From: a virus
Taxonomy: Duplodnaviria > Heunggongvirae > Uroviricota > Caudoviricetes
Strand: one strand, 5' to 3'
Virus record (IMG/VR): IMGVR_UViG_2802429226_000004
Location: 1 to 38,116 of that record
DNA length: 38,116 bases
This document shows, piece after piece, positions 1-38,116 of this stretch. The notes beneath the pieces are model-generated. The model worked only from the letters and a program-made list of their open reading frames with translations. It did not search any database and had not been told where the DNA came from. Numbering within the stretch: the first letter of the stretch is position 1; the number at the start of each line of letters is the position of its first letter. Made by a program: the position numbers and the translations under genes.

Positions 1-1251
1 GTGCTTACCGATACAAAATTAAAAAACCTCAAGCCGCAGGACAAACTATACAAAGTCTCCGATCGTGACGGGCTGTATGTAGCTGTGCTTACGTCAGGTA
101 CGGTCTCGTTTCGCTATGACTACCGTATCAACGGTCGCCGCGAAACACTGGTAATCGGGCAGTATGGGCGTGACGGTATCAGCCTGGCAGAAGCGCGGGA
201 AGAACTGATTGCTGCAAAGAAGCTGCTTAAAGCAGGCCAGTCGCCGGCTGCGGCTAAACGTGACGGTATCAAAAAGATTCGTGGTGCCGAGACGTTTGCG
301 GTACATACCGACAGTTATATGAAACACGTCATCCTGGCTGACAGTACCCGCGCAATGAAGCAGGCGGTGATCGACCGTGACATACTTCCGGTTCTTGGCA
401 ACAAAATGATGGCTGAAATTACCACATCGATGGTTCGTGATTTGTGTGACCGGATTGTCGAACGCGGTGGTCGGGCAACAGCAGTACAGGCCAGGGAGAT
501 CATCAGCAGCGTATACCGTCACGCTAATGACCGTGGTCATGGTTTGTTTAATCCTGCGGCTGACATTAAACCTTCGTCTATCGCCATATTTAAACCAAGA
601 GAGCGAACACTGACACCAGAAGAAATTGGCCTGTTCTTCCGCACGCTGGATGCCATTGGTGCTATGGGCACTATGAAAATGGCTTTAAAGTTGGTGCTTA
701 TCACTATGGTTCGTAAAGGCGAATTCACCAATGCAACGTGGGATGAAATAGATTTTAAAAAATGGACATGGACAATTCCTTCAGACCGCATGAAAGGAAG
801 CCGGGCGCACGTTATTTACCTGCCTAAACAGGCACAGGATATATTGGTCGGGTTGCAGATGTGCGCTGGTGGAAGTGAATACCTGGTTCCTGGTCGTTAC
901 AATTTCCGGAAGCCATTATCTAATGCCGCACTGAACTCTCTGATCGACAGAACGGTGAAAATAATAAATGAAGATGGTGAGCATATTCAGGACTTCACCG
1001 TACACGATATGCGCCGTACAGCCAGTACGTTGTTGCATGAGGCTGGTTATCCTTCAGACTGGATTGAAAAGGCTCTGGCACATGAGCAGAAAGGTGTGCG
1101 CGCCGTATATAACAAAGCGGAATACGCCAGACAGCGCGCCTACATGTTGCAGCAGTGGGCCGATATGATTGATTCTTGGATTGACGGGGAGCATACGGAT
1201 CTGATTCCGTTCTCCCCGTCGAAGTTTGAGAAGTGGATGGCGGGGGAATAA
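1..1251 (+). CDS. int: tyrosine integrase (P4-type, N-terminal arm-binding domain); begins at the window edge with GTG, may be 5'-truncated by a codon or two
   Basis: 416-aa ORF; N-terminus LTDTKLKNLKPQDKLYKVSDRDGLYVAV...FRYDYRINGRRETLVIG matches the conserved N-domain of P4-family integrases; C-terminal HDMRRTASTLL...AHEQKGVRAVYNKAEY fits the R..H..R..Y catalytic region. Confidence 0.9.
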   Translation: MLTDTKLKNLKPQDKLYKVSDRDGLYVAVLTSGTVSFRYDYRINGRRETLVIGQYGRDGISLAEAREELIAAKKLLKAGQSPAAAKRDGIKKIRGAETFAVHTDSYMKHVILADSTRAMKQAVIDRDILPVLGNKMMAEITTSMVRDLCDRIVERGGRATAVQAREIISSVYRHANDRGHGLFNPAADIKPSSIAIFKPRERTLTPEEIGLFFRTLDAIGAMGTMKMALKLVLITMVRKGEFTNATWDEIDFKKWTWTIPSDRMKGSRAHVIYLPKQAQDILVGLQMCAGGSEYLVPGRYNFRKPLSNAALNSLIDRTVKIINEDGEHIQDFTVHDMRRTASTLLHEAGYPSDWIEKALAHEQKGVRAVYNKAEYARQRAYMLQQWADMIDSWIDGEHTDLIPFSPSKFEKWMAGE

Positions 1252-1254
1252 CGT

Positions 1255-1449
1255 TTAATTATTCTGCTGATTTTCTTCCATCTCTGCTTCTGCTGCCAGT
1301 GATTCAATTTTGTTTTCGAATATTGCTGACAGTGTTGCAAATTCAGCATCAGTGACAGCGGGAATTGGAACAAACCTGATCCCGCTGTGTGCAAGCATGT
1401 TTGCAGTTTCAAGGCATTTTCTTAAATCTGCTGGTGATGCCCTGTTCAT
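1255..1449 (-). CDS. hypothetical small acidic protein (64 aa from internal ATG)
   Basis: Minus-strand ORF; ATG at 1449 overlaps the stop of the upstream methyltransferase gene (ATGA overlap), suggesting translational coupling; no family recognised. Confidence 0.4.
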   Translation of the reverse strand: MNRASPADLRKCLETANMLAHSGIRFVPIPAVTDAEFATLSAIFENKIESLAAEAEMEENQQNN

Positions 1450-2096
1450 ACAGCACGCTCCCGCCCCTGGATGTCTGTTGGTGACAGCGGAGCATTGCTG
1501 AATGCATTTGTTAATCCGCCAATATCCAACGCGTATCCAGGGTGTAGTTGCACTGCCGGGTCTTCGCACTGATTACCCCAAACATCGAAGCCATGAGACG
1601 TCTGGCGGGCGAACAGTTCAATGCGAGAAACATCGCCTAATAATTGCACAAGTTTTTCACGAACGATATCTGGCTTTCTTGAATGCTCAAGCCGCGGTGC
1701 GGTAAATGACTGAACGATCCCTGCATTAATGCGCGTAGGTAGTTTTCCCTTTACCGCAAACAGGCAATCTTCACTATTGGCGCGAGTCATGTGTCCCATA
1801 CCCATAACCAGTTTATCTGGTTGTCGACTACCACATTTTATCCACGTGAAGCCCTTCATCGTCATCAGACGGAATCCCCAGGCTTCAACAACTTTTAGTG
1901 CTTCGAGTGGTTGTGTTGGCACCCACCACATGGCCAACAGACAGTTTTCATCGGCCAAATCCCACACAGGAAGGCGGCAGATATCCAGCACACTCATAAC
2001 CGGATATTTAAAACCGGCACCGCGATTACCATCTGCGGCTTTGTCCCGGTATACCCAGGGTGGATCTGCATAGATTAGTGTGTATTTCTTAGTCAT
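1446..2096 (-). CDS. MT-A70-like N6-adenine DNA methyltransferase (orphan, no cognate nuclease seen)
   Basis: 216-aa ORF with N-terminal YTLIYADPPWVY (DPPW catalytic motif of MT-A70/Dam-type adenine methyltransferases). Confidence 0.75.
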   Translation of the reverse strand: MTKKYTLIYADPPWVYRDKAADGNRGAGFKYPVMSVLDICRLPVWDLADENCLLAMWWVPTQPLEALKVVEAWGFRLMTMKGFTWIKCGSRQPDKLVMGMGHMTRANSEDCLFAVKGKLPTRINAGIVQSFTAPRLEHSRKPDIVREKLVQLLGDVSRIELFARQTSHGFDVWGNQCEDPAVQLHPGYALDIGGLTNAFSNAPLSPTDIQGRERAV

Positions 2097-2388
2097 AAAC
2101 CACCCCGCAACATCCTATACCGCTATAGTCTCCACGGCGAAGGCCGTTACCTTTTGTGATACATTGGTCCCTGCGAACCGCGATCCTTGCACGCTCAACA
2201 TCACCAGAAGCAACATCCATACACTGAAGCCAAAGGTGAGCGGCAATGCGGAACTGCCCTTTTTTCTCTCTTTCAATCGCGCGTTTTTCGATCTCTATCG
2301 CCGCAGGAGTAACGGCGACAATCTTTGACGGACTGCGCATTGAAACCTTGTTCATGTGATATTTTTCAAGTCGGCTTAACTTTCTCAC
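2089..2388 (-). CDS. hypothetical protein
   Basis: 99-aa minus-strand ORF; GTG start preceded by GAGGG; 3' end overlaps the methyltransferase start. Confidence 0.45.
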   Translation of the reverse strand: MRKLSRLEKYHMNKVSMRSPSKIVAVTPAAIEIEKRAIEREKKGQFRIAAHLWLQCMDVASGDVERARIAVRRDQCITKGNGLRRGDYSGIGCCGVVYD

Positions 2389-2497
2389 TTAATCCAACCC
2401 TCTCTGAAAATTAATGCCAGCAGATAAAGCCATGCTGAAACAGAGGCCAGGAATAAGTACCATCCTGACCATTTGCTCCAGTGACTTAGCAGCACAC

Positions 2498-2746
2498 TCA
2501 TGCAGCGTTGCTCACAGGACGATATACACGTTGCTGAACAGGAGGCTTTTTACCCTGGAACTCTGCCGGGCTTGCTGCCTGACGTTCATCAAGCCAACGC
2601 TCAACTTCGTCACGGTTCCATGCGCAGCGTTTGTCAGTGATATACCAGCGTTTAGGAAATTCCCCTGCGCGCTCCATACGGTCGATAGTGCTCCATGACA
2701 GTGGCACCACCGCCAGGAGTTCCTTCTTACCTAATGCACCTTTCAT
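2498..2746 (-). CDS. AlpA-family / excisionase-like HTH DNA-binding protein
   Basis: 82 aa; KKELLAVVPLSWSTIDRMERAGEFPKRWYI...WNRDEVERWL resembles the AlpA/Xis winged-helix signature; GAGG Shine-Dalgarno 6 nt upstream of ATG; sits between integrase and recombination genes. Confidence 0.7.
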   Translation of the reverse strand: MKGALGKKELLAVVPLSWSTIDRMERAGEFPKRWYITDKRCAWNRDEVERWLDERQAASPAEFQGKKPPVQQRVYRPVSNAA

Positions 2747-2795: not shown

Positions 2796-3818
2796 TTACT
2801 CGAATTCTGGACGCATATCGTTAAGCGTCATCATGAATTTTTGGTGATATTCATCACCGAGCTTTTCAGCCATGGTGTTAATCTCATTTTCAGCGCGCTT
2901 GAACATCGTTTTTGCATCTTCAGCAGATGGATCCAGGCTATTAAGTATCGCGATGATATATTCTCGAGCTTCTTCTCGTTCTGAATCTGAAATTGGCGAC
3001 AGGTGTTGACGCTCATCGTCAACTACGGAATATTCACCAGTGATAACAGCTGCGTTATCTTGGCTAAGTCCAGCTTCAGCGCGCTCATCCATAACAACAG
3101 CCTTCTGCATTTCAATAGAAACAGGAAGATATTTGAATAGTCGGCGAATTACTGTTTTTTTAGCCATCTCATCGAAGTGATCAACCCATGGGCCGCTGCT
3201 ACCGGCTTTGCTCAGTGCACGAACTTTCTCAATGTCTGCCCGGCTCATAACTTCAAATTGGACTCCGCCATCTTTCAGTCGTGCAACGGCGTAAACGTGC
3301 GTTAATTCTCCGCGGTCACCTGTTTCGCAAGGTAAATGCTCGAGCGTTTCTTCCAGGCCGTATGAGTAGCTGAATTTGTCGTTTGTATGTACGGTACGAG
3401 CCGAGATACTCAGGATCTGCCCAGAGCGGCGGGCAAGGTCAATCATTCCGCGATAGCCGATAATCAGCTGTGCTTCTGTAGATACGGTTTCCCATCTTCC
3501 ATTTACTTTCTGGCGTTTGTCGAACGGTATCAGGTAAGCGTGTCCAAGAGCTCCGCCTGGTTCAAGACCCAATTGGGCACATTGCATAATTGCCCCCAGG
3601 AAGCTGGCTTGGTCGCATGATGCAAGTTTTGGAACCTTTCGGATCTCTGTGGTTGCTATGCGCGCCAGACGGTCTGCTGTCATGTGCTTTGGAAGTGCCA
3701 AAGCCATCTGAGCTTTAATTTTTGGGTCTGCCAGAAGTCCGGCCAGAGTTGTTGGTTTCTCATTATGATGTGCAACTTGGTTACCGGTAGCCGCTGCCTT
3801 AAGTGCATTGATAGACAT
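2796..3818 (-). CDS. recT: RecT-family single-strand annealing protein
   Basis: 340 aa; central ...QCAQLGLEPGG..GHAYLIPF... region typical of RecT/Bet annealing proteins; immediately downstream of a YqaJ-type exonuclease gene. Confidence 0.8.
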   Translation of the reverse strand: MSINALKAAATGNQVAHHNEKPTTLAGLLADPKIKAQMALALPKHMTADRLARIATTEIRKVPKLASCDQASFLGAIMQCAQLGLEPGGALGHAYLIPFDKRQKVNGRWETVSTEAQLIIGYRGMIDLARRSGQILSISARTVHTNDKFSYSYGLEETLEHLPCETGDRGELTHVYAVARLKDGGVQFEVMSRADIEKVRALSKAGSSGPWVDHFDEMAKKTVIRRLFKYLPVSIEMQKAVVMDERAEAGLSQDNAAVITGEYSVVDDERQHLSPISDSEREEAREYIIAILNSLDPSAEDAKTMFKRAENEINTMAEKLGDEYHQKFMMTLNDMRPEFE

Positions 3819-3827
3819 TTTTTCTCC

Positions 3828-4727
3828 TTACTTCATTCTGAAGACGCGTTGTGTCGTTGTTGTTTTGAATTTTTCGAATAACTCAGGGTGTACTGACTGG
3901 AATAGCTTCTGGTCGAATCTGTTGCTGATCTGAGATTTCCATGTGCAGAGCGGCTTTCCGTCCAGGGTCAGGACTGAGTGCTCTTGCATGTACATCTTCA
4001 GCTTCTCTTCTGATATAGCTATTTCTTCTTCCAGTGATTTTCTGCGTGACTTCATGTCTCGTAGATCGTTGAATAGTGCGAGTGCCTTTCCGTCAGCCTC
4101 GATACTTGTCCCGGCATCTTTCTCAAACATCAGCGATACATCGCTTACGCTGGTAGCTTCCGGCGGGTTAAGATTTTTCACTCGGTCCCAGAAAGCGATT
4201 TCTTTTTCTAAGATCGCCTGGATAGTTTCTTCATCACGCTCAACCCGATAGATTCGGAAGTCGTCGCCACCGATAAGCACACCGAAAACGCATACCTGTT
4301 TGTTTGTAACCATCAACCCGTGCATGGCCTGGGCCGTGTAATGCACAGGAATTGCATCTGTCTGGATTTCTCCCCATTCTTTGGCTTTGAACGGACTAAC
4401 TGTTTTGATCTCAATGTTCTCGCCTGACGCTGCTTCTGCATCGATCTCAGCTGCAATAAAATCGTAATCACGGTGGATATAGCGGTTTCCGCGATGAACG
4501 ATTTCCATCCCTGTTTCCTCAGAAAGCAGGTCTATTACGTATGGCTCCATACGCTGGCCACGCGTGAAAACTTTCTGCTTGCTTGGGTCTACTGGTTTGA
4601 CACGTGGCTGGACCTTATCCAGATAAACCTCAAGCGGGGTGCGCCATGGGCTAATTCCAAGAATCCCTGCAACATCGCTTCCTCCGATGTATTTTGTTCT
4701 ATCCATGATTCCAGCGTTCTGCATCAT
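3828..4727 (-). CDS. YqaJ-like viral recombinase-domain exonuclease (lambda Exo functional analogue)
   Basis: 299 aa; N-terminus DRTKYIGGSDVAGILGISPWRTPLEVYLDK is the hallmark of YqaJ/lambda-exonuclease family proteins. Confidence 0.85.
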   Translation of the reverse strand: MMQNAGIMDRTKYIGGSDVAGILGISPWRTPLEVYLDKVQPRVKPVDPSKQKVFTRGQRMEPYVIDLLSEETGMEIVHRGNRYIHRDYDFIAAEIDAEAASGENIEIKTVSPFKAKEWGEIQTDAIPVHYTAQAMHGLMVTNKQVCVFGVLIGGDDFRIYRVERDEETIQAILEKEIAFWDRVKNLNPPEATSVSDVSLMFEKDAGTSIEADGKALALFNDLRDMKSRRKSLEEEIAISEEKLKMYMQEHSVLTLDGKPLCTWKSQISNRFDQKLFQSVHPELFEKFKTTTTQRVFRMK

Positions 4728-5038
4728 GCCGCTTCCCTCTGCCCATCAATCCGATCCGCCAGATCCCAGCGGGCGATAATTGCCATTGCCTCGCGCCGGT
4801 AGGAATCCATCAGTTCTTCGAACTCAGGGCTGTCTTTAGCAGCCTCCAGCACTTCCTGACGAACGCCTTTGCCTGTTACAACGTCGAAAGTTGAGGACAG
4901 TTGATGAAGTCGGATGCTCTCAATCAGTTCAACTTGTCGGTCATATAGCTGTTCTGACAGGCGGTAGTCCTTGTCGAATGCCAGCATGATTTTTTGAAGA
5001 TTTTTCTGCTGATTAACGTTCATTATCAGCCCTCCCAT
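4724..5038 (-). CDS. hypothetical protein
   Basis: 104-aa ORF, 4-nt overlap with the downstream exonuclease gene; RBS GGAGGG provided by the 3' end of the upstream small ORF. Confidence 0.55.
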   Translation of the reverse strand: MGGLIMNVNQQKNLQKIMLAFDKDYRLSEQLYDRQVELIESIRLHQLSSTFDVVTGKGVRQEVLEAAKDSPEFEELMDSYRREAMAIIARWDLADRIDGQREAA

Positions 5039-5178
5039 ATCTCGTTATCGTTGGCTACATCGCGAGCTTCTTTGCTGACGAAAGCCCACTTAATGCCTTC
5101 CTGTAAGGTGCGGAACTTCCAGCTCATGAATCCGCATGCAGTAACGCAGTACCAACCGTTGATGATTTTCCACTGCAT
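5026..5178 (-). CDS. small protein (50 aa), first gene of the leftward early operon; Kil-like position
   Basis: Hand-translated minus-strand ORF MQWKIINGWYCVTACGFMSWKFRTLQEGIKWAFVSKEARDVANDNEIWEG; GAGGT 7 nt upstream of ATG; not in the supplied ORF track (below length cutoff). Confidence 0.35.
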   Translation of the reverse strand: MQWKIINGWYCVTACGFMSWKFRTLQEGIKWAFVSKEARDVANDNEIWEG

Positions 5179-5196: not shown

Positions 5197-5275
5197 GTTA
5201 CCGTTGAGGTAATAATTATGCTTATTTGGTTTGGTGTCAATAGATATGAGTTAAAAAAATTACCCGTAAGGTAAT
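5197..5275 (-). promoter_or_regulatory. OL/PL-like region: two 17-bp inverted-repeat operators (5197-5213, 5259-5275) flanking a leftward promoter-like element
   Basis: GTTACCGTTGAGGTAAT and ATTACCCGTAAGGTAAT; the minus strand between them reads TTGACA-N17-AATTAT; directly upstream of the leftward operon. Confidence 0.5.
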
Positions 5276-5284
5276 CTATCTGGC

Positions 5285-5309
5285 AATAAAAAAGCCGCCA
5301 TGAGGCGGC
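5285..5309 (-). terminator. rho-independent terminator downstream of the repressor gene
   Basis: GCCGCC-ATGA-GGCGGC hairpin; on the minus strand it is followed by a T-run (plus strand AATAAAAAA precedes it). Confidence 0.6.
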
Positions 5310-5331
5310 TTACTTACTGAAAACTATAGTT

Positions 5332-8743: not shown

Positions 8744-9223
8744 ATGGAAAGTAATATCAAAGGGTTAGTTGCCGCCGGGCATGAGATGGCTTCGGAACTG
8801 AAAGCAGAATGTGGTGCCGTTGATATGCGCAGTGTGGCAAAGCTGATCAGCGATTTGGCAACGCAACTGGAAGTGCAACTGGTGCGTGCTAATGCGCTGG
8901 CAGCGGAGAATGCGGGGATGAAGTCTGGCGCAATGGACGAAATCAAGGTTATCAACCGTGGAGGTCAGGCATATTGCGTAAAAGATGGAGTGCAAGTTAA
9001 TCCCATGTATGCAAGAGGGTGGAATGACTATCGCGCAAAGTCTCTGCAATCAGACACCCCAGCCACCGATGCTTTTCTGGCTGAAATTGAACGCAAAGCA
9101 ATCCGAAAGTTCATTAACAGCATTGAACACATCCTGTGTGACAAGCTGTCTCCGTATGACACCGAAGAGATGCTTGAGGCTATGCGTATTTTTCTGGAAG
9201 AACAGGGAGGTGAGCAAAAATGA
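8744..9223 (+). CDS. hypothetical phage protein
   Basis: 159-aa ORF with GAGGG RBS; 4-nt overlap with the next gene. Confidence 0.55.
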   Translation: MESNIKGLVAAGHEMASELKAECGAVDMRSVAKLISDLATQLEVQLVRANALAAENAGMKSGAMDEIKVINRGGQAYCVKDGVQVNPMYARGWNDYRAKSLQSDTPATDAFLAEIERKAIRKFINSIEHILCDKLSPYDTEEMLEAMRIFLEEQGGEQK

Positions 9224-9537
9224 CGATCACAAAACAACGGGTAGAAGAAATCATATTCCGCATTGAAATGTATGGGCATGGTGCAGGGTATACCGCCGAA
9301 GAGGTTTATGACCTGGCTGTACTGGCGCTGAATTTATCAAATATCGCAAACCTGAAGCGATACGAGCTTGATATGGATGGTTGTGACTCGTTCGGTCAGG
9401 ATTGTGGCGCTGACATGACTGAAGATTCTGATGGCGATTATGTCCTGTTTGATGACGTGGTTAAGTTGTTTGAGTTTGATACAACCACTCAGAAGCTAGA
9501 AAGCCCAGCAAAGGAGTCAACCAGTGAGCAAAATTAA
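9220..9537 (+). CDS. hypothetical acidic phage protein
   Basis: 105-aa ORF, ATGA-coupled to the upstream gene, GGGAGGTGA RBS. Confidence 0.5.
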   Translation: MTITKQRVEEIIFRIEMYGHGAGYTAEEVYDLAVLALNLSNIANLKRYELDMDGCDSFGQDCGADMTEDSDGDYVLFDDVVKLFEFDTTTQKLESPAKESTSEQN

Positions 9538-10183
9538 TTACCAGGCACTGCGTGAGGCGGCGGAACGTGCAATTCCAGCAATGGAACGCCTGTTAATGTT
9601 GCCAGCTGATGATGATTTGTTAAGTGAACAGGAACTTAAAGATTATGGTGTGGATATTGATGCGCTCAACGCCTTCAAATTTCTGACCGGACCAGAAACC
9701 GTGCTGACGCTGCTGGATGAACGGGAAAGGAACCAGCAATACATCAAATCCCGCGACCAGGAGAACGAGGATATTGCGCTAACGGTAGGGAAACTGCGTG
9801 TTGAGCTTGAGGAAGCAAAATCAAAACTCAACGAGCAACGCGAGTATTACGAAGGTGTTATCTCGGATGGGAGTAAGCGTATTGCTGAACTGGAAGCACG
9901 GGAAATAAAACCAGCCAAAGGTGAAGTTCTTGTCGTTGTTTCTGGTTTTACTGGTTGCGGAAAAAGCGCCATTGCCGGGGAAATAGAAATCGCGATGAAG
10001 GCTATTGGTGTACCGGTTAAGTGGACTACTGGCGATGCAGAAAAGCGCATGACTGGCGCTGACTGGCTGACAGCAATTGAGATGTACAAACCAACTGTGC
10101 GCATTGTGGAAGTTAATGTGCCGCGCGTCGCTGGCATTCGCATCAAAGGAGACGCAGGAGAACAAAACGATGAAAAACCGTAA
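9524..10183 (+). CDS. Ead/Ea22-like protein
   Basis: 219 aa; coiled-coil middle and C-terminal VVVSGFTGCGKSAIAGEIEIAMKAIGVPVKW resemble Ead/Ea22-like prophage proteins; GTG start with AAGGAG. Confidence 0.6.
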   Translation: MSKINYQALREAAERAIPAMERLLMLPADDDLLSEQELKDYGVDIDALNAFKFLTGPETVLTLLDERERNQQYIKSRDQENEDIALTVGKLRVELEEAKSKLNEQREYYEGVISDGSKRIAELEAREIKPAKGEVLVVVSGFTGCGKSAIAGEIEIAMKAIGVPVKWTTGDAEKRMTGADWLTAIEMYKPTVRIVEVNVPRVAGIRIKGDAGEQNDEKP

Positions 10184-10346
10184 AGCAAAATTACTTCTTT
10201 TATCGCGTTCGACGGGGTACGAGAAGCTACCAATCAGCAATCACAAACGGGCGGTGATCGGCATGTTTGGTAGGGTGGTATTCGCATTTAACTATAAACC
10301 CACCGCGTCGCGGAACAGACGAGAGAAGGGGGACGCAGTGCGATGA
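10169..10346 (+). CDS. small basic protein, first of a tandem pair sharing the N-terminus MKNRKAK
   Basis: 59-aa ORF from ATG 10169 (AGGAG upstream); ATGA-coupled to the next ORF; speculative. Confidence 0.3.
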
Positions 10347-10534
10347 AAAACCGTAAAGCTAAGATGCTTATCTCCCGTGTATACAGACTTTGCTATCCCA
10401 GCCAGTGGTTGAGAGTTAGCAATCGTCGTGTGGTGTTGTTTTCATTTTCTGGAATTGCCAGAGAGGGAGTTCGAGATAAGGGCAGCACGGCGCAAAACCG
10501 CTGGAAAAACCACTTGCGCACTAAAGGAGACTGA
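10343..10534 (+). CDS. small basic protein, second of the tandem pair (MKNRKAKM...)
   Basis: 63-aa ORF; AAGGGGGA upstream; shares a 19-bp identical start region with the preceding ORF. Confidence 0.3.
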   Translation: MKNRKAKMLISRVYRLCYPSQWLRVSNRRVVLFSFSGIAREGVRDKGSTAQNRWKNHLRTKGD

Positions 10535-10535
10535 T

Positions 10536-10745
10536 ATGGCTATTGCCGCAAGTTACACCATGCATCTCTACTGTGATTGTCGCCAGTGTACAAATGGTAA
10601 ATATCAAACGCCAGACTTCGGTGAGTATATCGGTACGTCATGGGCTGGCTGTGCAAAAGAGGCACGTAAGGATGGCTGGCGAATAAGCAAAGACAAAACA
10701 CGTGCTTTTGCGCCAGGGCATAAAGTTTTAAGGATTAACAAATGA
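10536..10745 (+). CDS. small Cys-rich hypothetical protein
   Basis: 69 aa from ATG 10536, preceded by AAGGAG; MAIAASYTMHLYCDCRQCTNGK... Confidence 0.45.
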   Translation: MAIAASYTMHLYCDCRQCTNGKYQTPDFGEYIGTSWAGCAKEARKDGWRISKDKTRAFAPGHKVLRINK

Positions 10746-11482
10746 CCACTATTACCAGAGAAAACGCGGAAATTAAATCATTCATCGCTGGTTTCCTGAG
10801 CGACCCGGCGCACGATAACCAATCTACAGACAGCCTGCTTGCCAATGTGTTTCGTATCGCACAGGCATCGCTGGAAGCAGAACCAGTTGCTTATATTTTC
10901 AAGCATCCGGCCGGGAAATTATTCTGGGCTTTAACGGATGAAAGCAATAAAGAGCAAGCGGACGTTATTCCTGTTTATGCTGCCGCGCCTGCGTCGGTTG
11001 TGCCGGATAATGCATCAGAGCCTCTTGCTTATGCTTACAAAGAGCTTACGCCTGAGATTATGCGCAACCATTTAGCTGTATTCGAGCGATATGGAATAGC
11101 CCCAAACGATAGCTCTACCACAATTCAGGCACTGCGAATCGCGCTGGATGGCAATCATACAGAGCAAAACCTCGATATGGTAGACCATTTCGGTGACGCC
11201 ACCAAAAAGGCCATGCTTCATGGTGCCGAACCTGTAAGCCAAACTTACAAGTTGAACGAGCTATCTGGCAACTCTCCGGTAACTCCGGATGGTTGGATAA
11301 GCTGTAGTGAGCGAATGCCGGATGACGGGCAGTGGTGCGTAGTGAACACAGAATACGGGTATTACGTGCAATGCTGGTCTGAAGGTCAAGGATGGCTTGG
11401 TGATGATATCAGCATCCCTGAATGCGATGTAATCAATTGGATGCCGCTACCAGAACCGCCACAGGAGGTTAACCGTGGCTAA
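10742..11482 (+). CDS. hypothetical protein with C-terminal DUF551-like domain
   Basis: 246 aa; C-terminus WISCSERMPDDGQWCVVNTEYGYYVQCWSEGQGWLGDD...WMPLPEPP resembles DUF551. Confidence 0.6.
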   Translation: MTTITRENAEIKSFIAGFLSDPAHDNQSTDSLLANVFRIAQASLEAEPVAYIFKHPAGKLFWALTDESNKEQADVIPVYAAAPASVVPDNASEPLAYAYKELTPEIMRNHLAVFERYGIAPNDSSTTIQALRIALDGNHTEQNLDMVDHFGDATKKAMLHGAEPVSQTYKLNELSGNSPVTPDGWISCSERMPDDGQWCVVNTEYGYYVQCWSEGQGWLGDDISIPECDVINWMPLPEPPQEVNRG

Positions 11483-14934: not shown

Positions 14935-15011
14935 TGGCGTGGCATGCAGGATTCGAACCTGCGACCAACCGCTTAGAAGGCGGTTGCTCTGTCCAGCTGA
15001 GCTAATGCCAC
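14935..15011 (-). tRNA. tRNA-Arg (anticodon UCU)
   Basis: Hand-folded 77-nt cloverleaf on the minus strand: acceptor GUGGCAU/AUGCCAC, D-arm GCUC/GAGC, anticodon stem ACCGC/GCGGU with loop CUUCUAA, T-arm GCAGG-UUCGAAU-CCUGC, discriminator G and encoded CCA. Confidence 0.85.
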
Positions 15012-32394: not shown

Positions 32395-34740
32395 ATGACG
32401 GTCTCAACCGAAGTTGACCACAACGAATACACCGGTAACGGCGTTACGACATCGTTTCCGTATACTTTTCGAATTTTCAGAAAATCAGACCTGGTTGTTC
32501 AGGTGTCTGACCTGAACGGGAACGTAACAGAATTGGTTCTGGATACCGGTTATACGGTAACTGGGGCGGGCACTTATAGTGGCGGTTCAGTGGTTCTGCC
32601 GTCTCCGCTTGCTGCTGGCTGGCGAATTACGATAGATCGTGTGCTTGATGTAGTGCAGGAGACAGATCTTCGCAATCAGGGAAAATTTTTCCCCGAAGTG
32701 CATGAAGATGCTTTGGACTACCTGACGATGCTGATCCAGCAATGTTTTGGGTGGTTCAGACGTGCATTGATGAAACCATCTTTGCTTGCAAAATATTACG
32801 ATGCAAAGCAAAACAGAATTTCTAACCTTGCAGATCCATCACTTGAGCAGGACGCTGTAAATAATCGCTCAATGCGTAATTATGTCGATGCTGCAATCGC
32901 CGGGGTTGTTGGTGGTTTTGGTTGGTTTATTCAGTATGGTTCTGGGGCAGTATACAGAACGTTCCAGGATAAAATGCGAGATAATTTTAGTGTTAAAGAT
33001 TTTGGGGCGAAAGGGGATGGGGTATATTCAGACTCTGATGCCATTAATGCCGCAGCATTAGCTGCTTTTAATAATGGTGGCGGGGGAATATTTTACCCTC
33101 CAGGTGTTTATTTAATAGATTCTCCTATCATTCTTTATACAGGCGTTCATCATAAAGGCTCTGGAAAGAGAGCAACATTTCTGTATGTTAAAAAAGGTAG
33201 TAATACAGATGTATTTAAAACACATGGCTTTGGCGTTGTGGAAAATCTGTCTGATGCGCCATATGGATTTAGCATAAAAGATATGACCATTGATGGTAAT
33301 TATCTTGACTTGCAAAGAGATACAAACTCATGGAGAACTTGCGACACTGTTAACAATGACTATGGAACTGCCATTAAAATATTCGGCAGCATGTACCACA
33401 TTGATGTTGAGATTAATAATGTTGCAGAACATGCTCTCTATTCAGAGGGGTATGGATCATTTCATGATAATCAGGAACACGCCTCTGAAGTGAGGATAAC
33501 GGGAAGAATTTCAGGGAGAGAGGGGGTTGTGTTCAGGGGGCCAGGTGATATTAACCTGGATTATATTGTTTTTGGCCTGTGTGGACTTCCTCCTTACAGC
33601 GCAAGATTAACAGCAACAAGCCAACAAAGCCTTCTTTATCCCGGAGAACCATGTCATGGAATTGTTCTTGATAATCAGTCTCCTTATACAGGACATGTCG
33701 ATATAAATTACATCCATGTATATGCCGTGTATTATGGCTATGGATTTAAGACGCTGGGTGTTAACCGATTCAATGCGAGGCACGTGTGTGTTGATAATAG
33801 TTTAGGTGGTTACTGGTTTACCAACGGGGCACATGGTGTTGTTGCCATCGCAGAAGCCAGGGCATGCGGAAGAATGCCAGATAACTACACTGGCGATTCA
33901 ATATCTCCTCTCCGCGACATGCTTCTGGATAACGGTACAATCTGGACACTTAACATCAATATAAAAGCACAAAGATATTCACCTTCAATTGATGATGATG
34001 GGTATCAGATAGCTATATCAGGCAACAACAATGTAGTTACAATAAACCAAATAGGTCAGTTACAGAGTGATAATACCCCTATTAAAGCCTCGTTTCTTTC
34101 TGTTACTGGTGACAATAACAATGTTACTTTTACATCCAAGAGGATAAAAGGAAATTTATGTTACTTATCTGGTGGCGGTAATAACATAAGAGGTACGTGT
34201 GATAATTTGTTCTCAGGTGCTGCTTTTATTCGCGACGCAACAAATTCAACAACAATTTGTTTTGCGAACAGTGTAGATATAACTGCGAAGGGGCTTTCTT
34301 CTGATTGTACTGGATTTAATAGTATTGGTACATGTGCATCAGAGAATATAAGGTTAATGATTTCTGGTGCTGTTGGATATACGAAGTTTACTGGCGATCG
34401 TATGGCTGCAATAAATCGAACTTGTGTTTGGATGGTAATGGCAACAATAGGAAATTCAATTAATGGTAAATCGACAGAGGATTATCTTGAGTGGGCTATG
34501 CCTACACCAACCGATGGTGATTTTCATGAGGTAGATATAGAACATAACTTCCTTTATGCTCCAACTTTAAATCAAATTTCATGGGCTTTCAGACAACCCG
34601 GTACTGAAGTTGTTGGTGCAACTATTGATTATATAAGACTCATTGGTGTTCCAACAGATACAACATTTAAAATCAGATATAAGTGGTCTGGTGCAGCCGC
34701 TTCTGGAAGCGCACCTATAGTAACGTTTCATATAAAATAA
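32395..34740 (+). CDS. tailspike protein with pectate-lyase-like beta-helix (probable polysaccharide depolymerase)
   Basis: 781 aa; N-terminal MTVSTEVDHNEYTGNGVTTSFPYTFRIF attachment domain; FSVKDFGAKGDGVYSDSDAINAAAL and repeated beta-helix-like segments; C-terminal two-thirds strongly AT-rich. Confidence 0.8.
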   Translation: MTVSTEVDHNEYTGNGVTTSFPYTFRIFRKSDLVVQVSDLNGNVTELVLDTGYTVTGAGTYSGGSVVLPSPLAAGWRITIDRVLDVVQETDLRNQGKFFPEVHEDALDYLTMLIQQCFGWFRRALMKPSLLAKYYDAKQNRISNLADPSLEQDAVNNRSMRNYVDAAIAGVVGGFGWFIQYGSGAVYRTFQDKMRDNFSVKDFGAKGDGVYSDSDAINAAALAAFNNGGGGIFYPPGVYLIDSPIILYTGVHHKGSGKRATFLYVKKGSNTDVFKTHGFGVVENLSDAPYGFSIKDMTIDGNYLDLQRDTNSWRTCDTVNNDYGTAIKIFGSMYHIDVEINNVAEHALYSEGYGSFHDNQEHASEVRITGRISGREGVVFRGPGDINLDYIVFGLCGLPPYSARLTATSQQSLLYPGEPCHGIVLDNQSPYTGHVDINYIHVYAVYYGYGFKTLGVNRFNARHVCVDNSLGGYWFTNGAHGVVAIAEARACGRMPDNYTGDSISPLRDMLLDNGTIWTLNINIKAQRYSPSIDDDGYQIAISGNNNVVTINQIGQLQSDNTPIKASFLSVTGDNNNVTFTSKRIKGNLCYLSGGGNNIRGTCDNLFSGAAFIRDATNSTTICFANSVDITAKGLSSDCTGFNSIGTCASENIRLMISGAVGYTKFTGDRMAAINRTCVWMVMATIGNSINGKSTEDYLEWAMPTPTDGDFHEVDIEHNFLYAPTLNQISWAFRQPGTEVVGATIDYIRLIGVPTDTTFKIRYKWSGAAASGSAPIVTFHIK

Positions 34741-34776
34741 ACAATTTATTAATTAGTTTTTAATTATATAGAAGGC

Positions 34777-34815
34777 ATCAGTCCCAATAAAATGGGGCTG
34801 ATTACTTTTCATTGT
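34777..34815 (+). terminator. putative rho-independent terminator after the tailspike gene
   Basis: CAGTCCC-AATAAAAT-GGGGCTG imperfect hairpin followed by a T-rich tract. Confidence 0.4.
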
Positions 34816-34957
34816 TTTCATAAAAAGGTAAAAAAATTAAATATTATTATTTGTTTGAACCTGGTTATAGAAGTAATTATTTTAAGGTAACATTAAACCT
34901 TATGTGGTTTGTTGTGTATGATAGTCTGTAAGTGAAGAGGTTCGATATGTACAGAAA

Positions 34958-35371
34958 ATGGTGTGTGCTATGTCAGTTCAAATAACATCAGAGTCTTTAA
35001 ATCAATGGCTTAGTGCTAGTTCTCTGGTTGCAGTGATAGCAGGAGTTCCTCCTGAGGTTGCTTTAGGTGCCTTAGCTGGTGCGGTAATCTTTGTTACCTC
35101 TGCTGTCGAGTATCCGATCCGCCGCCGAGTGCTCCTCTCTATGCTCAGCTTTCTTTGCGGCCTTCTCTTTTACAAACCTGCAGCATCAATTCTTATCGGA
35201 ATAGCCAGTCTGATCCCTACCATCACGAAGGAGTCTTTTGAGAAAGGGATTGTTTTCTCTGCTGGCGCATTCGTGTCAGCAATTGTCGCTGTGCGTATTG
35301 GTATATGGCTCTATCACCGTTCCGATAATCCACGCGAGTTAATTCCGGGGAGAAAAGGCGATGGTAACTAA
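34958..35371 (+). CDS. holin-like membrane protein (start uncertain; 34970 is an alternative)
   Basis: 137 aa with several hydrophobic helices; first gene of the cassette ending in endolysin and spanins. Confidence 0.5.
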   Translation: MVCAMSVQITSESLNQWLSASSLVAVIAGVPPEVALGALAGAVIFVTSAVEYPIRRRVLLSMLSFLCGLLFYKPAASILIGIASLIPTITKESFEKGIVFSAGAFVSAIVAVRIGIWLYHRSDNPRELIPGRKGDGN

Positions 35372-36892: not shown

Positions 36893-36953
36893 ACCCGAAC
36901 ACTAAATGCTGAGGTTTGCTATTCGTACGAGGCTTCAGCATATTTTGGTAACA

Positions 36954-36987
36954 AAACCCTCTGTTCATCCACTGGAGGGTTTTTTAT
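36954..36987 (+). terminator. rho-independent terminator (host-side, possibly the gua operon terminator)
   Basis: CCCTC-N13-GAGGG hairpin followed by TTTTTTAT. Confidence 0.55.
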
Positions 36988-37042
36988 GCAATTAAAAAGC
37001 CCATAATCCTCACGAATTACAGGCCTGGTAGTGGAAAGACGA

Positions 37043-37585
37043 TTAATTAAACCAACTGTCTGATTTATTCTCTTCTGCTTTACCCACGCTTTTCATCAAA
37101 TCACGACCACCTTCAGTCATATTCCTGTTAGCGTCAGCTTCAGATTGTACAACATCGGTTTGCGCTGCTTTGTGTTTCAGTTCCTGATCGATAAATTCGT
37201 TCTCACGCTTAACGCGCGCTTCTTCTTTTGCCAGCGCCAGTTTTTGCTTCTGAATCTCTAAGTTGCGCAGCTCATCTTCATAACTTTGATCGCGCTTTTT
37301 ATCCGCAGTGAATTCGGCGTCCCGTTTATCCTGGCGAGCTTTTTTATCCGCTGCTGCTGCTGCCGCTCTTTTATTCGCTGCGGCCTGAGCGTTTGCGCGC
37401 CGTTGCTTCTCTTGCTGGATTTCCCTGTTGCGCTCCGCAACCCATTCGTCATGCTGCCTTTGTTCTTCATTTTTGCCTTGCTGTTCAGCTTCTGCGACCG
37501 CAGAGAGTTGATCCTGTAATGAAGAGGCGAAAGCCGGGCTACTAACAGCAGCTAATATGGCGGCGCAAAGAAAAACTTTCTTCAT
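37043..37585 (-). CDS. secreted coiled-coil periplasmic protein, host-like (possibly YfgI-like)
   Basis: 180 aa; signal peptide MKKVFLCAAILAAVSSPAFA; highly charged Lys/Glu/Ala/Gln-rich helical body; GGAGGA RBS. Confidence 0.55.
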   Translation of the reverse strand: MKKVFLCAAILAAVSSPAFASSLQDQLSAVAEAEQQGKNEEQRQHDEWVAERNREIQQEKQRRANAQAAANKRAAAAAADKKARQDKRDAEFTADKKRDQSYEDELRNLEIQKQKLALAKEEARVKRENEFIDQELKHKAAQTDVVQSEADANRNMTEGGRDLMKSVGKAEENKSDSWFN

Positions 37586-37600
37586 GAGTCCTCCTGATAG

Positions 37601-38116
37601 TTAGCTCTTTTCAGGACATTTTGTATTTGGCTGAATACGCGTTTCGTTATAAGTGGTGGTAATAACAACGGCTAAACCCGTTGTGAACTGGCATTCTTTA
37701 CCCACCTGGGTGGAGGTGTACACTTTGGTGCCTTCCTTATAAGTTAAAGAGACACCTTCCACTAAGGTTTTATCATTCACCATAGTACCCGCTGCCGCGC
37801 CTACAGCTCCGCCACCAACTGCACCAGCCGTTGTTCCGGAGTTACTACCAGATCCAACGTTATGGCCGATAACGCCGCCTGCGACAGCGCCAATAAGTGC
37901 GCCAAAGGCTTGCGCATTCCGTTTATTTTGTGAGTTATCTACGGCAACTTTTGCGGGAAGAATGGAGATAATATTAACGGTTTTAGTTTCTTGCTTTGTA
38001 TTCAGTTGATCGGTTTGATAGACATCGGCGGCATGGTCGTCAGCATTTGACTGGCATCCTGCCAGGGTGAATGACGCTAAAATTGCCACAGGCAGAAAAC
38101 ATTTTTTAAATTTCAT
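37601..38116 (-). CDS. glycine-zipper outer-membrane lipoprotein, host-like (possibly YfgH-like); start codon at window edge
   Basis: 171 aa; lipoprotein signal with LAGC lipobox; Gly-zipper GALIGAVAGGVIGHNVGSG...GAVGGGAVGAAAG. Confidence 0.55.
   Translation of the reverse strand: MKFKKCFLPVAILASFTLAGCQSNADDHAADVYQTDQLNTKQETKTVNIISILPAKVAVDNSQNKRNAQAFGALIGAVAGGVIGHNVGSGSNSGTTAGAVGGGAVGAAAGTMVNDKTLVEGVSLTYKEGTKVYTSTQVGKECQFTTGLAVVITTTYNETRIQPNTKCPEKS

Follow-up and report, generated by a model that had tools for sequence, protein, structure and literature searches.

A PerC-family gene, an orphan MT-A70 methyltransferase gene, and a homolog of lambda orf63 near the integrase of a phiV10-like prophage

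Introduction

Three overlapping genes on the minus strand (positions 1255 to 2388) lie next to the integrase gene in a 38,116-nucleotide (nt) stretch of Caudoviricetes DNA (IMG/VR record IMGVR_UViG_2802429226_000004), here called the window. They encode a 99-amino-acid (aa) protein, an adenine methyltransferase of the MT-A70 family, and a 64-aa protein. The question raised by this locus is whether the three genes act together as one accessory unit. A first-pass annotation had read them in this way, as a self-contained triplet in which two small proteins of no recognizable family might serve an orphan methylase as specificity or anti-defense factors. Our analysis leads to a different reading, which we consider probable: the genes form the end of the early-left operon of a phiV10-like prophage, where a PerC-family gene and an orphan MT-A70 methylase gene, likely specific for GATC, are accompanied by an independent homolog of lambda Orf63.

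Results

The locus consists of common prophage genes of known families

The window is a phiV10-like (Uetakevirus) prophage, of a kind sited by guaA in related Escherichia coli genomes. Across its first 2.8 kb, from int to the AlpA-like gene, it shares 98.3% nucleotide identity with phiV10, and each of the three genes is approximately 98% identical to its annotated phiV10 counterpart. The 1.1-kb three-gene region was found in 539 of 5,426 complete E. coli genomes, in which RefSeq names the products MT-A70 family methyltransferase, PerC family transcriptional regulator, and DUF1382 family protein. The three genes are already known, as annotated and common prophage genes.

The description of the small proteins as lacking a recognizable family does not hold. 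In addition to their existing RefSeq names, the remote homology searches that had been proposed for both proteins return a family in each case, namely DUF1382, the family of lambda Orf63, for the 64-aa protein (PF07131 and PDB 8DSB) and PerC for the 99-aa protein (PF06069 and phrog_868).

The 64-aa protein is a full-length homolog of lambda Orf63

As originally described, the 64-aa protein is acidic (10 D/E against 5 K/R residues) and its gene has a start-stop overlap with the methylase gene. The ATG start codon overlaps the methylase TGA, so that tcat on the plus strand at 1446 to 1449 reads ATGA on the minus strand. The protein matches PF07131 at full length (profile positions 1 to 60 of 60; E = 1.8e-30; 105 bits against a cutoff of 27). 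The match to PDB entry 8DSB (lambda Orf63) spans residues 2 to 62 (E = 8.3e-13), and the alignment shows both E36 and K47 to be retained. E36, together with K47 across the dimer interface, has been reported to be important for the fold of Orf63, a dimeric, non-essential protein of the exo-xis region that is reported to favor lytic development (PMC10869804). In lambda, orf63 is annotated as DUF1382 and the neighboring orf60a as DUF1317.

Genes flanking the methylase vary between loci

A single anti-restriction unit, in which the small proteins would act as specificity or anti-defense subunits, would be in line with the tight translational coupling of the three genes and with an orphan methylase that lacks a recognized endonuclease. 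In Stx2a phages (loci L041 to L044), moreover, DUF1382 lies directly downstream of a methylase with 83% identity. The coupling itself was confirmed at the overlapping junctions. However, four-nucleotide overlaps occur at almost every junction of the operon and of related loci, and coupling therefore does not single out these three genes.

The gene neighborhoods of methylase relatives speak against such a unit as well. Two MT-A70-anchored samples were compared, in which relatives of the methylase are encoded by 80 viral contigs and by 80 genomes from as many species. The genes flanking the methylase vary widely across both sets, at odds with the idea of a self-contained triplet. Directly upstream of the methylase, 49 dereplicated kinds of genes were counted in 78 viral loci, and the commonest Pfam families at this position in the viral set are DUF1317 (7), DUF1382 (3), and PerC (2). 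DUF1382 is found in only one of the 80 species-level loci and occurs in lambda without any methylase. Where it does adjoin the methylase, it may lie on either side: downstream in the phiV10 group and the Stx2a phages, upstream in four epsilon15-like loci. In addition, both Orf60a (DUF1317) and Orf63 (DUF1382) homologs recur beside this methylase in related phages.

In some phiV10-like phages that are otherwise 96 to 98% identical, the DUF1382 gene is swapped for a gene encoding a 219-aa serine/threonine phosphatase at the same ATGA-coupled site. Examples are loci L018, L022, L023, and L072 and the phages PAS61 and BP9.

Because the position of DUF1382 varies, because the gene is replaced in relatives by the phosphatase gene and others, and because it exists in lambda without a methylase, the Orf63 homolog is best read as an independent gene of the exo-xis type rather than as the gene of a methylase subunit. 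GATC specificity is, furthermore, reported for two methylase relatives, one of which, p32 of Serratia phage BZS1, was assayed with its own gene alone. Taken together, we regard a three-gene anti-restriction unit as very unlikely.

A Dam-like specificity is predicted for the orphan methylase

The assignment of the integrase-proximal 216-aa protein to the MT-A70 adenine methyltransferases, made from its DPPW motif, was corroborated by profile searches. The motif is located at residues 11 to 14 (YADPPWVY, near the N terminus), and PF05063 is matched with 80 bits against a cutoff of 23.9 (residues 5 to 176 on profile positions 1 to 172 of 172). The protein also matches phrog_359 (E = 3e-120) and PADLOC MTase_II (E = 2.7e-77).

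Two relatives inform the prediction of its specificity. The window methylase is 45% identical (E = 2e-50) to an enterococcal MT-A70 protein of pMG2200, with the catalytic residues conserved, and 40% identical to BZS1 p32 (PhiBZS1_p32). All three enzymes have 57 invariant columns in common, including the motifs TRxN, HSxKP, and ELFxR..G.D.WGN. For BZS1 p32, which is likewise integrase-proximal, DpnI/MboI digestion demonstrated GATC methylation in a Dam- host with a plasmid that carried the p32 gene alone (PMC7556043). In the same paper, the Tn1549 enzyme M.EfaBMDam is cited as GATC-specific (PMC7556043). Since the 40.9% identity between the pMG2200 protein and p32 fits the 41% given in that paper, we infer that the pMG2200 protein is this Tn1549-type enzyme. 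With relatives at 40 to 45% identity reported to be GATC-specific, a Dam-like GATC specificity is the parsimonious prediction for the window methylase, and one toward which we lean.

One feature weighs against this prediction. The loop between the FTWxK and GxGxxTRAN motifs, which putatively recognizes the target, differs among all three enzymes, and the specificity of the window enzyme could therefore differ from GATC. The window enzyme might then not be Dam-like at all, having a relaxed or other specificity and a role like that of prophage M.EcoGII in broad protection from restriction. An identity of only 40 to 45% to the GATC-specific enzymes would allow for this, a Dam+ host would seem to have little need of a Dam-like enzyme, and promiscuity, along with silence in the lysogen, is common among the methylases of prophages and plasmids (PMC4659465, PMC7736820). 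The window enzyme itself is not covered in these papers on ST131 (PMC7736820) and M.EcoGIX (PMC4659465). On the other hand, M.EcoGII comes from a different methylase family, and the two characterized bacterial and phage MT-A70 relatives are both GATC-specific despite a mutual identity of 41% and very different hosts, which makes GATC the parsimonious specificity for the clade. A methylase that is not Dam-like appears unlikely to us, if by no means far-fetched. The window contains 134 GATC sites, a mild under-representation (observed/expected, 0.71) that says nothing either way, and counts of GATC and other palindromes were set aside as uninformative with regard to specificity.

Some relatives carry the name "N6-adenosine-specific RNA methylase IME4," and structures of METTL3 are matched at an E value of approximately 6e-6, as might be expected of a protein that methylates RNA like eukaryotic METTL3/IME4. 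However, among solved structures the closest relatives are two entries for ciliate MT-A70 proteins, 7f4r and 7f4l (E = 4e-13), which we take to be the MTA1 DNA N6-methyladenine methyltransferase complex. Given also that PADLOC groups the protein with type II DNA methylases and that the two bacterial and phage relatives methylate GATC in DNA, an RNA substrate is hardly credible.

The methylase is an orphan, as no cognate endonuclease was recognized nearby. In contrast to a type II restriction-modification system, no endonuclease is found among its neighbors (integrase, DUF1382, PerC-like gene, 38-aa open reading frame [ORF], AlpA, RecT, and exonuclease), none was detected by Pfam in the variable regions of the window, which diverge from the prophage of a 99%-identical relative (no gene-by-gene scan covered the remainder), and the annotation of that prophage lists none either. 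The methylase is also the sole PADLOC match. The earlier statement that no restriction partner is present is thus supported for the neighbors, the variable regions, and the prophage annotation of the relative.

As for its role, the enzyme would methylate GATC like Dam, keeping rapidly replicating phage DNA fully methylated. Full methylation would protect this DNA from GATC restriction that is sensitive to N6-methyladenine and avoid hemimethylated states. An anti-restriction role is plausible, but less so for a Dam-like enzyme, since the Dam of the host methylates GATC in any case. The benefit in a Dam+ host would then be limited: methylation would stay complete while the DNA replicates rapidly, and the phage would be protected in hosts poor in Dam. 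By analogy with other phage Dam enzymes, for which such functions have been discussed, a role in packaging or in the control of lysogeny would be equally possible.

Two further observations concern relatives of the methylase. An MT-A70 protein of Enterobacter hormaechei (P0085) is a hybrid, with an N-terminal half of the HK639/BZS1 type, including a 24-aa insertion, and a C-terminal half of the phiV10 type, including its tail. This suggests recombination inside the methylase gene between two subclades, which may be interchangeable. In the distant relatives L074, L080, L081, and L084, a second DNA methyltransferase gene directly follows the MT-A70 gene, with no visible endonuclease. Judged by eye, this second enzyme is MT-A70-like in L074 and, based on N-terminal motifs, of the C5 cytosine type in the other three.

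The 99-aa protein belongs to the PerC family

The 99-aa protein matches PF06069 (PerC) with 30.1 bits against a cutoff of 22.6, over a 46-residue core only (profile positions 5 to 50 of 90), and matches phrog_868, "transcriptional activator," at full length (E = 5.7e-62). It contains the helical core A..E..G.FRIAA..WL and a C-terminal YSGI tail, and it aligns with YfdN-like PerC proteins. YfdN has been called the K-12 PerC homolog (PMC5931665). With 23.6 bits, the 99-aa protein stays below the cutoff of the ANR model (NF033650; 32 bits) and is related to that family, not a member of it. BZS1 p33, encoded directly upstream of the BZS1 methylase, passes this model at 50.9 bits.

BLASTP gave no alignment of the 99-aa protein with BZS1 p33 (ANR) or with HK639_36, and the relationship shows only with profiles. 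Profile iteration seeded with either the window protein or the BZS1 ANR protein ends in nearly identical protein sets, which have the common core A..LE..G.[WY]RRAA..WL.A.D...R...R..C. In many of these proteins, the core is combined with a winged-helix domain at the N terminus and a YSGI or GRFVG tail at the C terminus. For HK639_36, HK639_37, and the gene that lies upstream of the L066 methylase, a PerC/ANR-like identity could not be established.

RefSeq calls shorter starts for this gene, resulting in 83 aa in E. coli A33 and 88 aa in phiV10. The GTG start that yields 99 aa appears to be the better call, since the N-terminal MxKLxRLEKYH is conserved in diverged homologs and since, among the candidate starts, the GTG at 2388 alone is preceded by a Shine-Dalgarno-like motif, GAGAGGG. 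In terms of function, two papers describe PerC/Pch and ANR proteins as acting on H-NS-silenced genes or via contacts with AraC-type activators and H-NS (PMC4764244, PMC5570504).

PerC-like genes recur directly upstream of DNA methyltransferase genes

In 25 of the 80 species-level MT-A70 loci, a PerC/ANR-like gene precedes the methylase gene on the same strand at a distance of up to 1.55 kb, in 12 of them directly adjacent to it, and the reverse order, with the PerC/ANR-like gene downstream, was seen once. The association was also counted from the side of the PerC-like gene, accepting a methyltransferase start between -60 and +300 nt relative to the stop codon of the PerC-like gene. A DNA methyltransferase gene then follows in 79 of the 93 viral loci sampled. 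It encodes an MT-A70 enzyme in 53 loci and an enzyme of another family in 26 (Dam PF05869, D12 PF02086, or C5 PF00145 fused to Dam or D12). Nine diverse PerC-profile matches from a large protein collection were also located in public assemblies. Seven are directly followed by a methyltransferase gene (five Dam, one MT-A70, and one C5+D12), and the other two have one gene in between. All nine loci are situated in an early-right operon after the replication genes, unlike the early-left site in the window.

The dependence is one-sided: PerC-like genes of this kind are nearly always accompanied by a methylase, whereas the methylases often occur without them. This pattern suggests a two-gene module in which one partner is subject to non-orthologous replacement. 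Within such a recurrent module, the PerC-like protein would control or assist the methylase. Controlling methylase expression, or linking methylation to nucleoid remodeling, is conceivable. The proposal that the small genes encode uncharacterized partners of the methylase is in this way partly rescued for the upstream PerC-like gene, whose kind precedes methyltransferase genes far more often than chance would seem to allow, but not for DUF1382.

Several points tell against a functional link. The PerC-anchored samples were seeded from methylase-adjacent PerC genes, are biased toward the association, and contain large clonal groups. About two thirds of the MT-A70 loci have no PerC-like gene, so the methylase does not need one, and in D12-anchored (SEN34-type) loci a PerC-like gene lies upstream in 4 of 80 and is absent from the remaining 76. 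In epsilon15-like phages, one to three genes separate the PerC-like gene from the methylase. The adjacency counts, moreover, stand without a baseline for other small genes.

The adjacency could therefore be positional only, with both genes as residents of an accessory slot that do not interact functionally. Through phage mosaicism, analogous genes come to lie at equivalent positions, members of the same methylase families often occur with no PerC-like gene, DUF1317 (lambda Orf60a) is found upstream at a comparable frequency, and the PerC-anchored samples are phylogenetically non-independent. Yet the same gene order, usually with an overlap, is retained in two different settings, near int in the early-left operon and behind the replication genes in the early-right operon, across four methylase domain families and PerC-like proteins of 60 to 174 aa, and the reverse order is confined to the single species-level locus mentioned above. 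We see an even balance of chances for the purely positional reading, and a methylase slot beside a conserved small gene is at least as likely an explanation as a functional link. A real functional link between the PerC-like gene and the methylase remains a tentative proposal, on the doubtful side of even.

In many lambdoid prophages, the early-right region (L342 to L363) contains an O-like replication gene followed by a PerC-family gene, a methyltransferase gene (Dam, MT-A70, or C5+D12), and genes for a LexA_DNA_bind protein, RusA, and KilA-N. Locus L344 contains a PerC gene, a truncated Dam gene, and YfdP/YfdI-type genes; it probably corresponds to the K-12 cryptic prophage CPS-53, with yfdN-yfdM as a decayed copy of the pair. 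K-12 yfdM has been called a putative Dam methylase (bioRxiv 10.1101/413146).

Gene fusions were not used as evidence. The PerC-methylase fusions P0003 (297 aa) and P0001 (263 aa) are 97 to 100% identical to the window genes and appear to be recent indel fusions across the 8-nt overlap. PerC+Dam, RusA+PerC, and O-like+PerC fusions appear to be merged neighboring genes. A megablast query with the PerC-Dam pair of locus L172 against isolated phages gave no match. Within our incomplete coverage of the literature, no paper connecting PerC-like genes with methyltransferases was found.

The genes lie at the end of an early-left operon

From gene overlaps and consensus scans, we infer that the three genes are the promoter-distal part of a nine-gene translationally coupled early-left operon (Table 1). 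The gene set given earlier for the interval between the integrase and the Xis-like gene was correct as to these three genes and missed the 38-aa membrane ORF and the longer upstream operon.

Table 1. Predicted features of the int-proximal region of the window
Feature	Position	Strand	Basis
Tyrosine integrase (P4-type)	1..1251	+	Pfam Arm-DNA-bind_3, Phage_int_M, Phage_integrase; annotated integrase in phiV10 and, next to guaA, in E. coli A33
64-aa acidic protein, lambda Orf63 homolog (DUF1382), final operon gene	1255..1449	-	PF07131, phrog_292, PDB 8DSB
216-aa MT-A70-family (beta-class) orphan DNA N6-adenine methyltransferase	1446..2096	-	PF05063, phrog_359, PADLOC MTase_II
99-aa PerC-family small regulator, GTG start	2089..2388	-	PF06069, phrog_868
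38-aa predicted membrane protein	2385..2501	-	phrog_17484 (E = 1.1e-25); annotated phiV10p35 membrane protein
82-aa AlpA-family helix-turn-helix protein, likely excisionase/regulator	2498..2746	-	PF05930 (24.2 bits); phrog_66, excisionase and transcriptional regulator
RecT recombinase	2796..3818	-	PF03837 (E = 2.6e-57)
YqaJ-type exonuclease	3828..4727	-	PF09588 (E = 2.8e-23)
Two small promoter-proximal ORFs (104 aa and 50 aa), no family found	4724..5178	-	ORF list; hypothetical in phiV10 and A33
Candidate early-left promoter, sigma-70-like TTGACA-17-AATTAT	5212..5240	-	Consensus scan, 10/12 positions
Intrinsic-terminator-like hairpin after repressor-like gene, just upstream of the promoter	5292..5311	-	8-bp stem, 6 GC pairs, T-run; terminator annotated at the same place in phiV10

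In support of the operon are the overlaps at its gene junctions and motifs that resemble Shine-Dalgarno sequences. The 99-aa gene overlaps the start of the methylase gene by 8 nt (ATGACTAA), and the 38-aa ORF is coupled at both ends, its ATG overlapping the TGA of the AlpA-family gene (ATGA) and its TGA overlapping the GTG of the 99-aa gene (GTGA). Ribosomes would transfer between successive genes via these overlaps of 4 to 8 nt. In a consensus scan, the minus strand showed one strong promoter-like site, at 5240 to 5212, and no terminator-like site from there down to 1255. That the promoter call and the absence of terminators both derive solely from consensus scans is a point against this operon model. 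A Pfam scan of the 104-aa promoter-proximal ORF gave no match.

The gene order exo, RecT, AlpA, orf38, PerC-like gene, methylase, Orf63-like gene, int corresponds to that of a lambda-type exo-xis accessory region. Such an operon would be silent under repression in the lysogen and expressed early upon induction or infection.

The integrase and DUF1382 genes are convergent, with 3 bp between their stop codons (1249 to 1257) and no terminator-like hairpin. Read-through from the early-left operon would yield RNA antisense to int.

The prophage is mosaic

A related prophage in E. coli A33, located between guaA and yfgI, is approximately 99% identical to the window, most of which aligns to it. Two segments of the window (8902 to 11437 and 33008 to 34969) have no alignment to the closest E. 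coli prophage and represent typical mosaic replacement modules. Their contents comprise genes for an Ead/Ea22-like and a DUF551 protein, several ORFs without a family, and the coding sequence for the C-terminal part of a 781-aa tailspike with a pectate lyase fold. A class I S-adenosylmethionine methyltransferase of the relative's prophage is absent from the window. A tRNA-Arg gene (anticodon TCT) at 14935 to 15011 on the minus strand is annotated in the A33 prophage as well.

The host flank (36900 to 38116; yfgI/yfgH) has approximately 89 to 95% identity to every one of 5,419 matching complete E. coli genomes, unlike the left part of the prophage, which is approximately 99% identical to E. coli prophages. 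A search of species-representative genomes with a 50-mer of this flank gave no exact match. Judging by the diverged flank, the host may be a non-coli Escherichia or a member of a cryptic clade.

Discussion

The three genes themselves add little to what is already annotated, and the main gain is the correction of the claim that the small proteins have no family. Beyond existing annotation, the PerC-like/methylase module offers a modest, testable lead. The PerC family is known for virulence regulators of enteropathogenic and enterohemorrhagic E. coli and for the uncharacterized K-12 yfdN. In the Enterobacterales temperate phages sampled here, PerC genes are almost always directly followed by a DNA methyltransferase gene, whatever the enzyme family. 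If the link is functional, it would provide a testable idea of the native phage role of PerC regulators and of how phage orphan methylases are controlled. In addition, whether the widespread integrase-proximal MT-A70 enzymes are Dam-like bears on the interpretation of methylomes and on phage escape from restriction.

A more far-reaching scenario, which we consider rather unlikely, would make the phage PerC-family proteins (the 99-aa protein, YfdN-like proteins, and some ANR-like proteins) dedicated methyltransferase partners in a mobile module. The methylase would be swappable (MT-A70, Dam, D12, or C5) and the small protein retained, controlling the timing or level of the methylase or coupling methylation to the remodeling of nucleoid and transcription factors. 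PerC and Pch would then be domesticated descendants of phage methylation control.

Comparison with known systems

The closest known counterparts are PhiV10p32, p33, and p34 of phiV10 and their epsilon15 equivalents, which correspond to the window genes in order, overlaps, and annotation (DUF1382, DNA methyltransferase, and PerC-type transcriptional activator). The window differs from the phiV10 phage record in being an integrated copy and in having separate exonuclease and RecT genes, where phiV10 is annotated with a fused RecE/RecT gene.

The methylase belongs to the same Pfam family as M.EfaBMDam and BZS1 p32, to which its 45% and 40% identity extends over the whole catalytic core, with DPPW and other motifs in common. 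BZS1 p32 also has an ANR/PerC-like small gene directly before it. However, the BZS1 and HK639 enzymes have an insertion of approximately 24 aa in the presumed recognition loop that the window enzyme lacks, and a C-terminal tail of approximately 25 aa, specific to the phiV10 type, sets the window enzyme apart from both M.EfaBMDam and BZS1 p32.

With PerC, Pch, and YfdN (PF06069) and with ANR (Aar; NF033650), the 99-aa protein has the helical core A..LE..G.[WY]RRAA..WL in common. It differs from YfdN-like proteins in lacking the N-terminal winged-helix domain. PerC and Pch activate transcription of ler/LEE1, whereas the window protein is likened to them by sequence alone. Canonical perC sits in the perABC operon, which is not known to include a methylase gene.

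A functional analogy can be drawn to com-mom of phage Mu and to the C proteins of restriction-modification systems, where a small gene likewise lies directly upstream of, and overlaps, a DNA-modification gene. Untimely expression of such a gene can be harmful. Com is a zinc-finger protein that activates translation, and the C proteins, which are of the Xre helix-turn-helix type, usually control the endonuclease gene; neither has a sequence relationship to the PerC-like protein.

For lambda, the likeness consists of the full-length homology of Orf63 and of a similar gene location, with the recombination genes on one side and int on the other, in an early-left operon. A pro-lytic effect is on record only for the lambda and Stx phage proteins. 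Lambda orf63 lies between orf60a and orf61; its counterpart in the window is the last gene of the operon and abuts the methylase. The window also departs from the lambda exo-xis region in its overall arrangement, with a convergent int and with the Xis-like gene upstream of the accessory genes.

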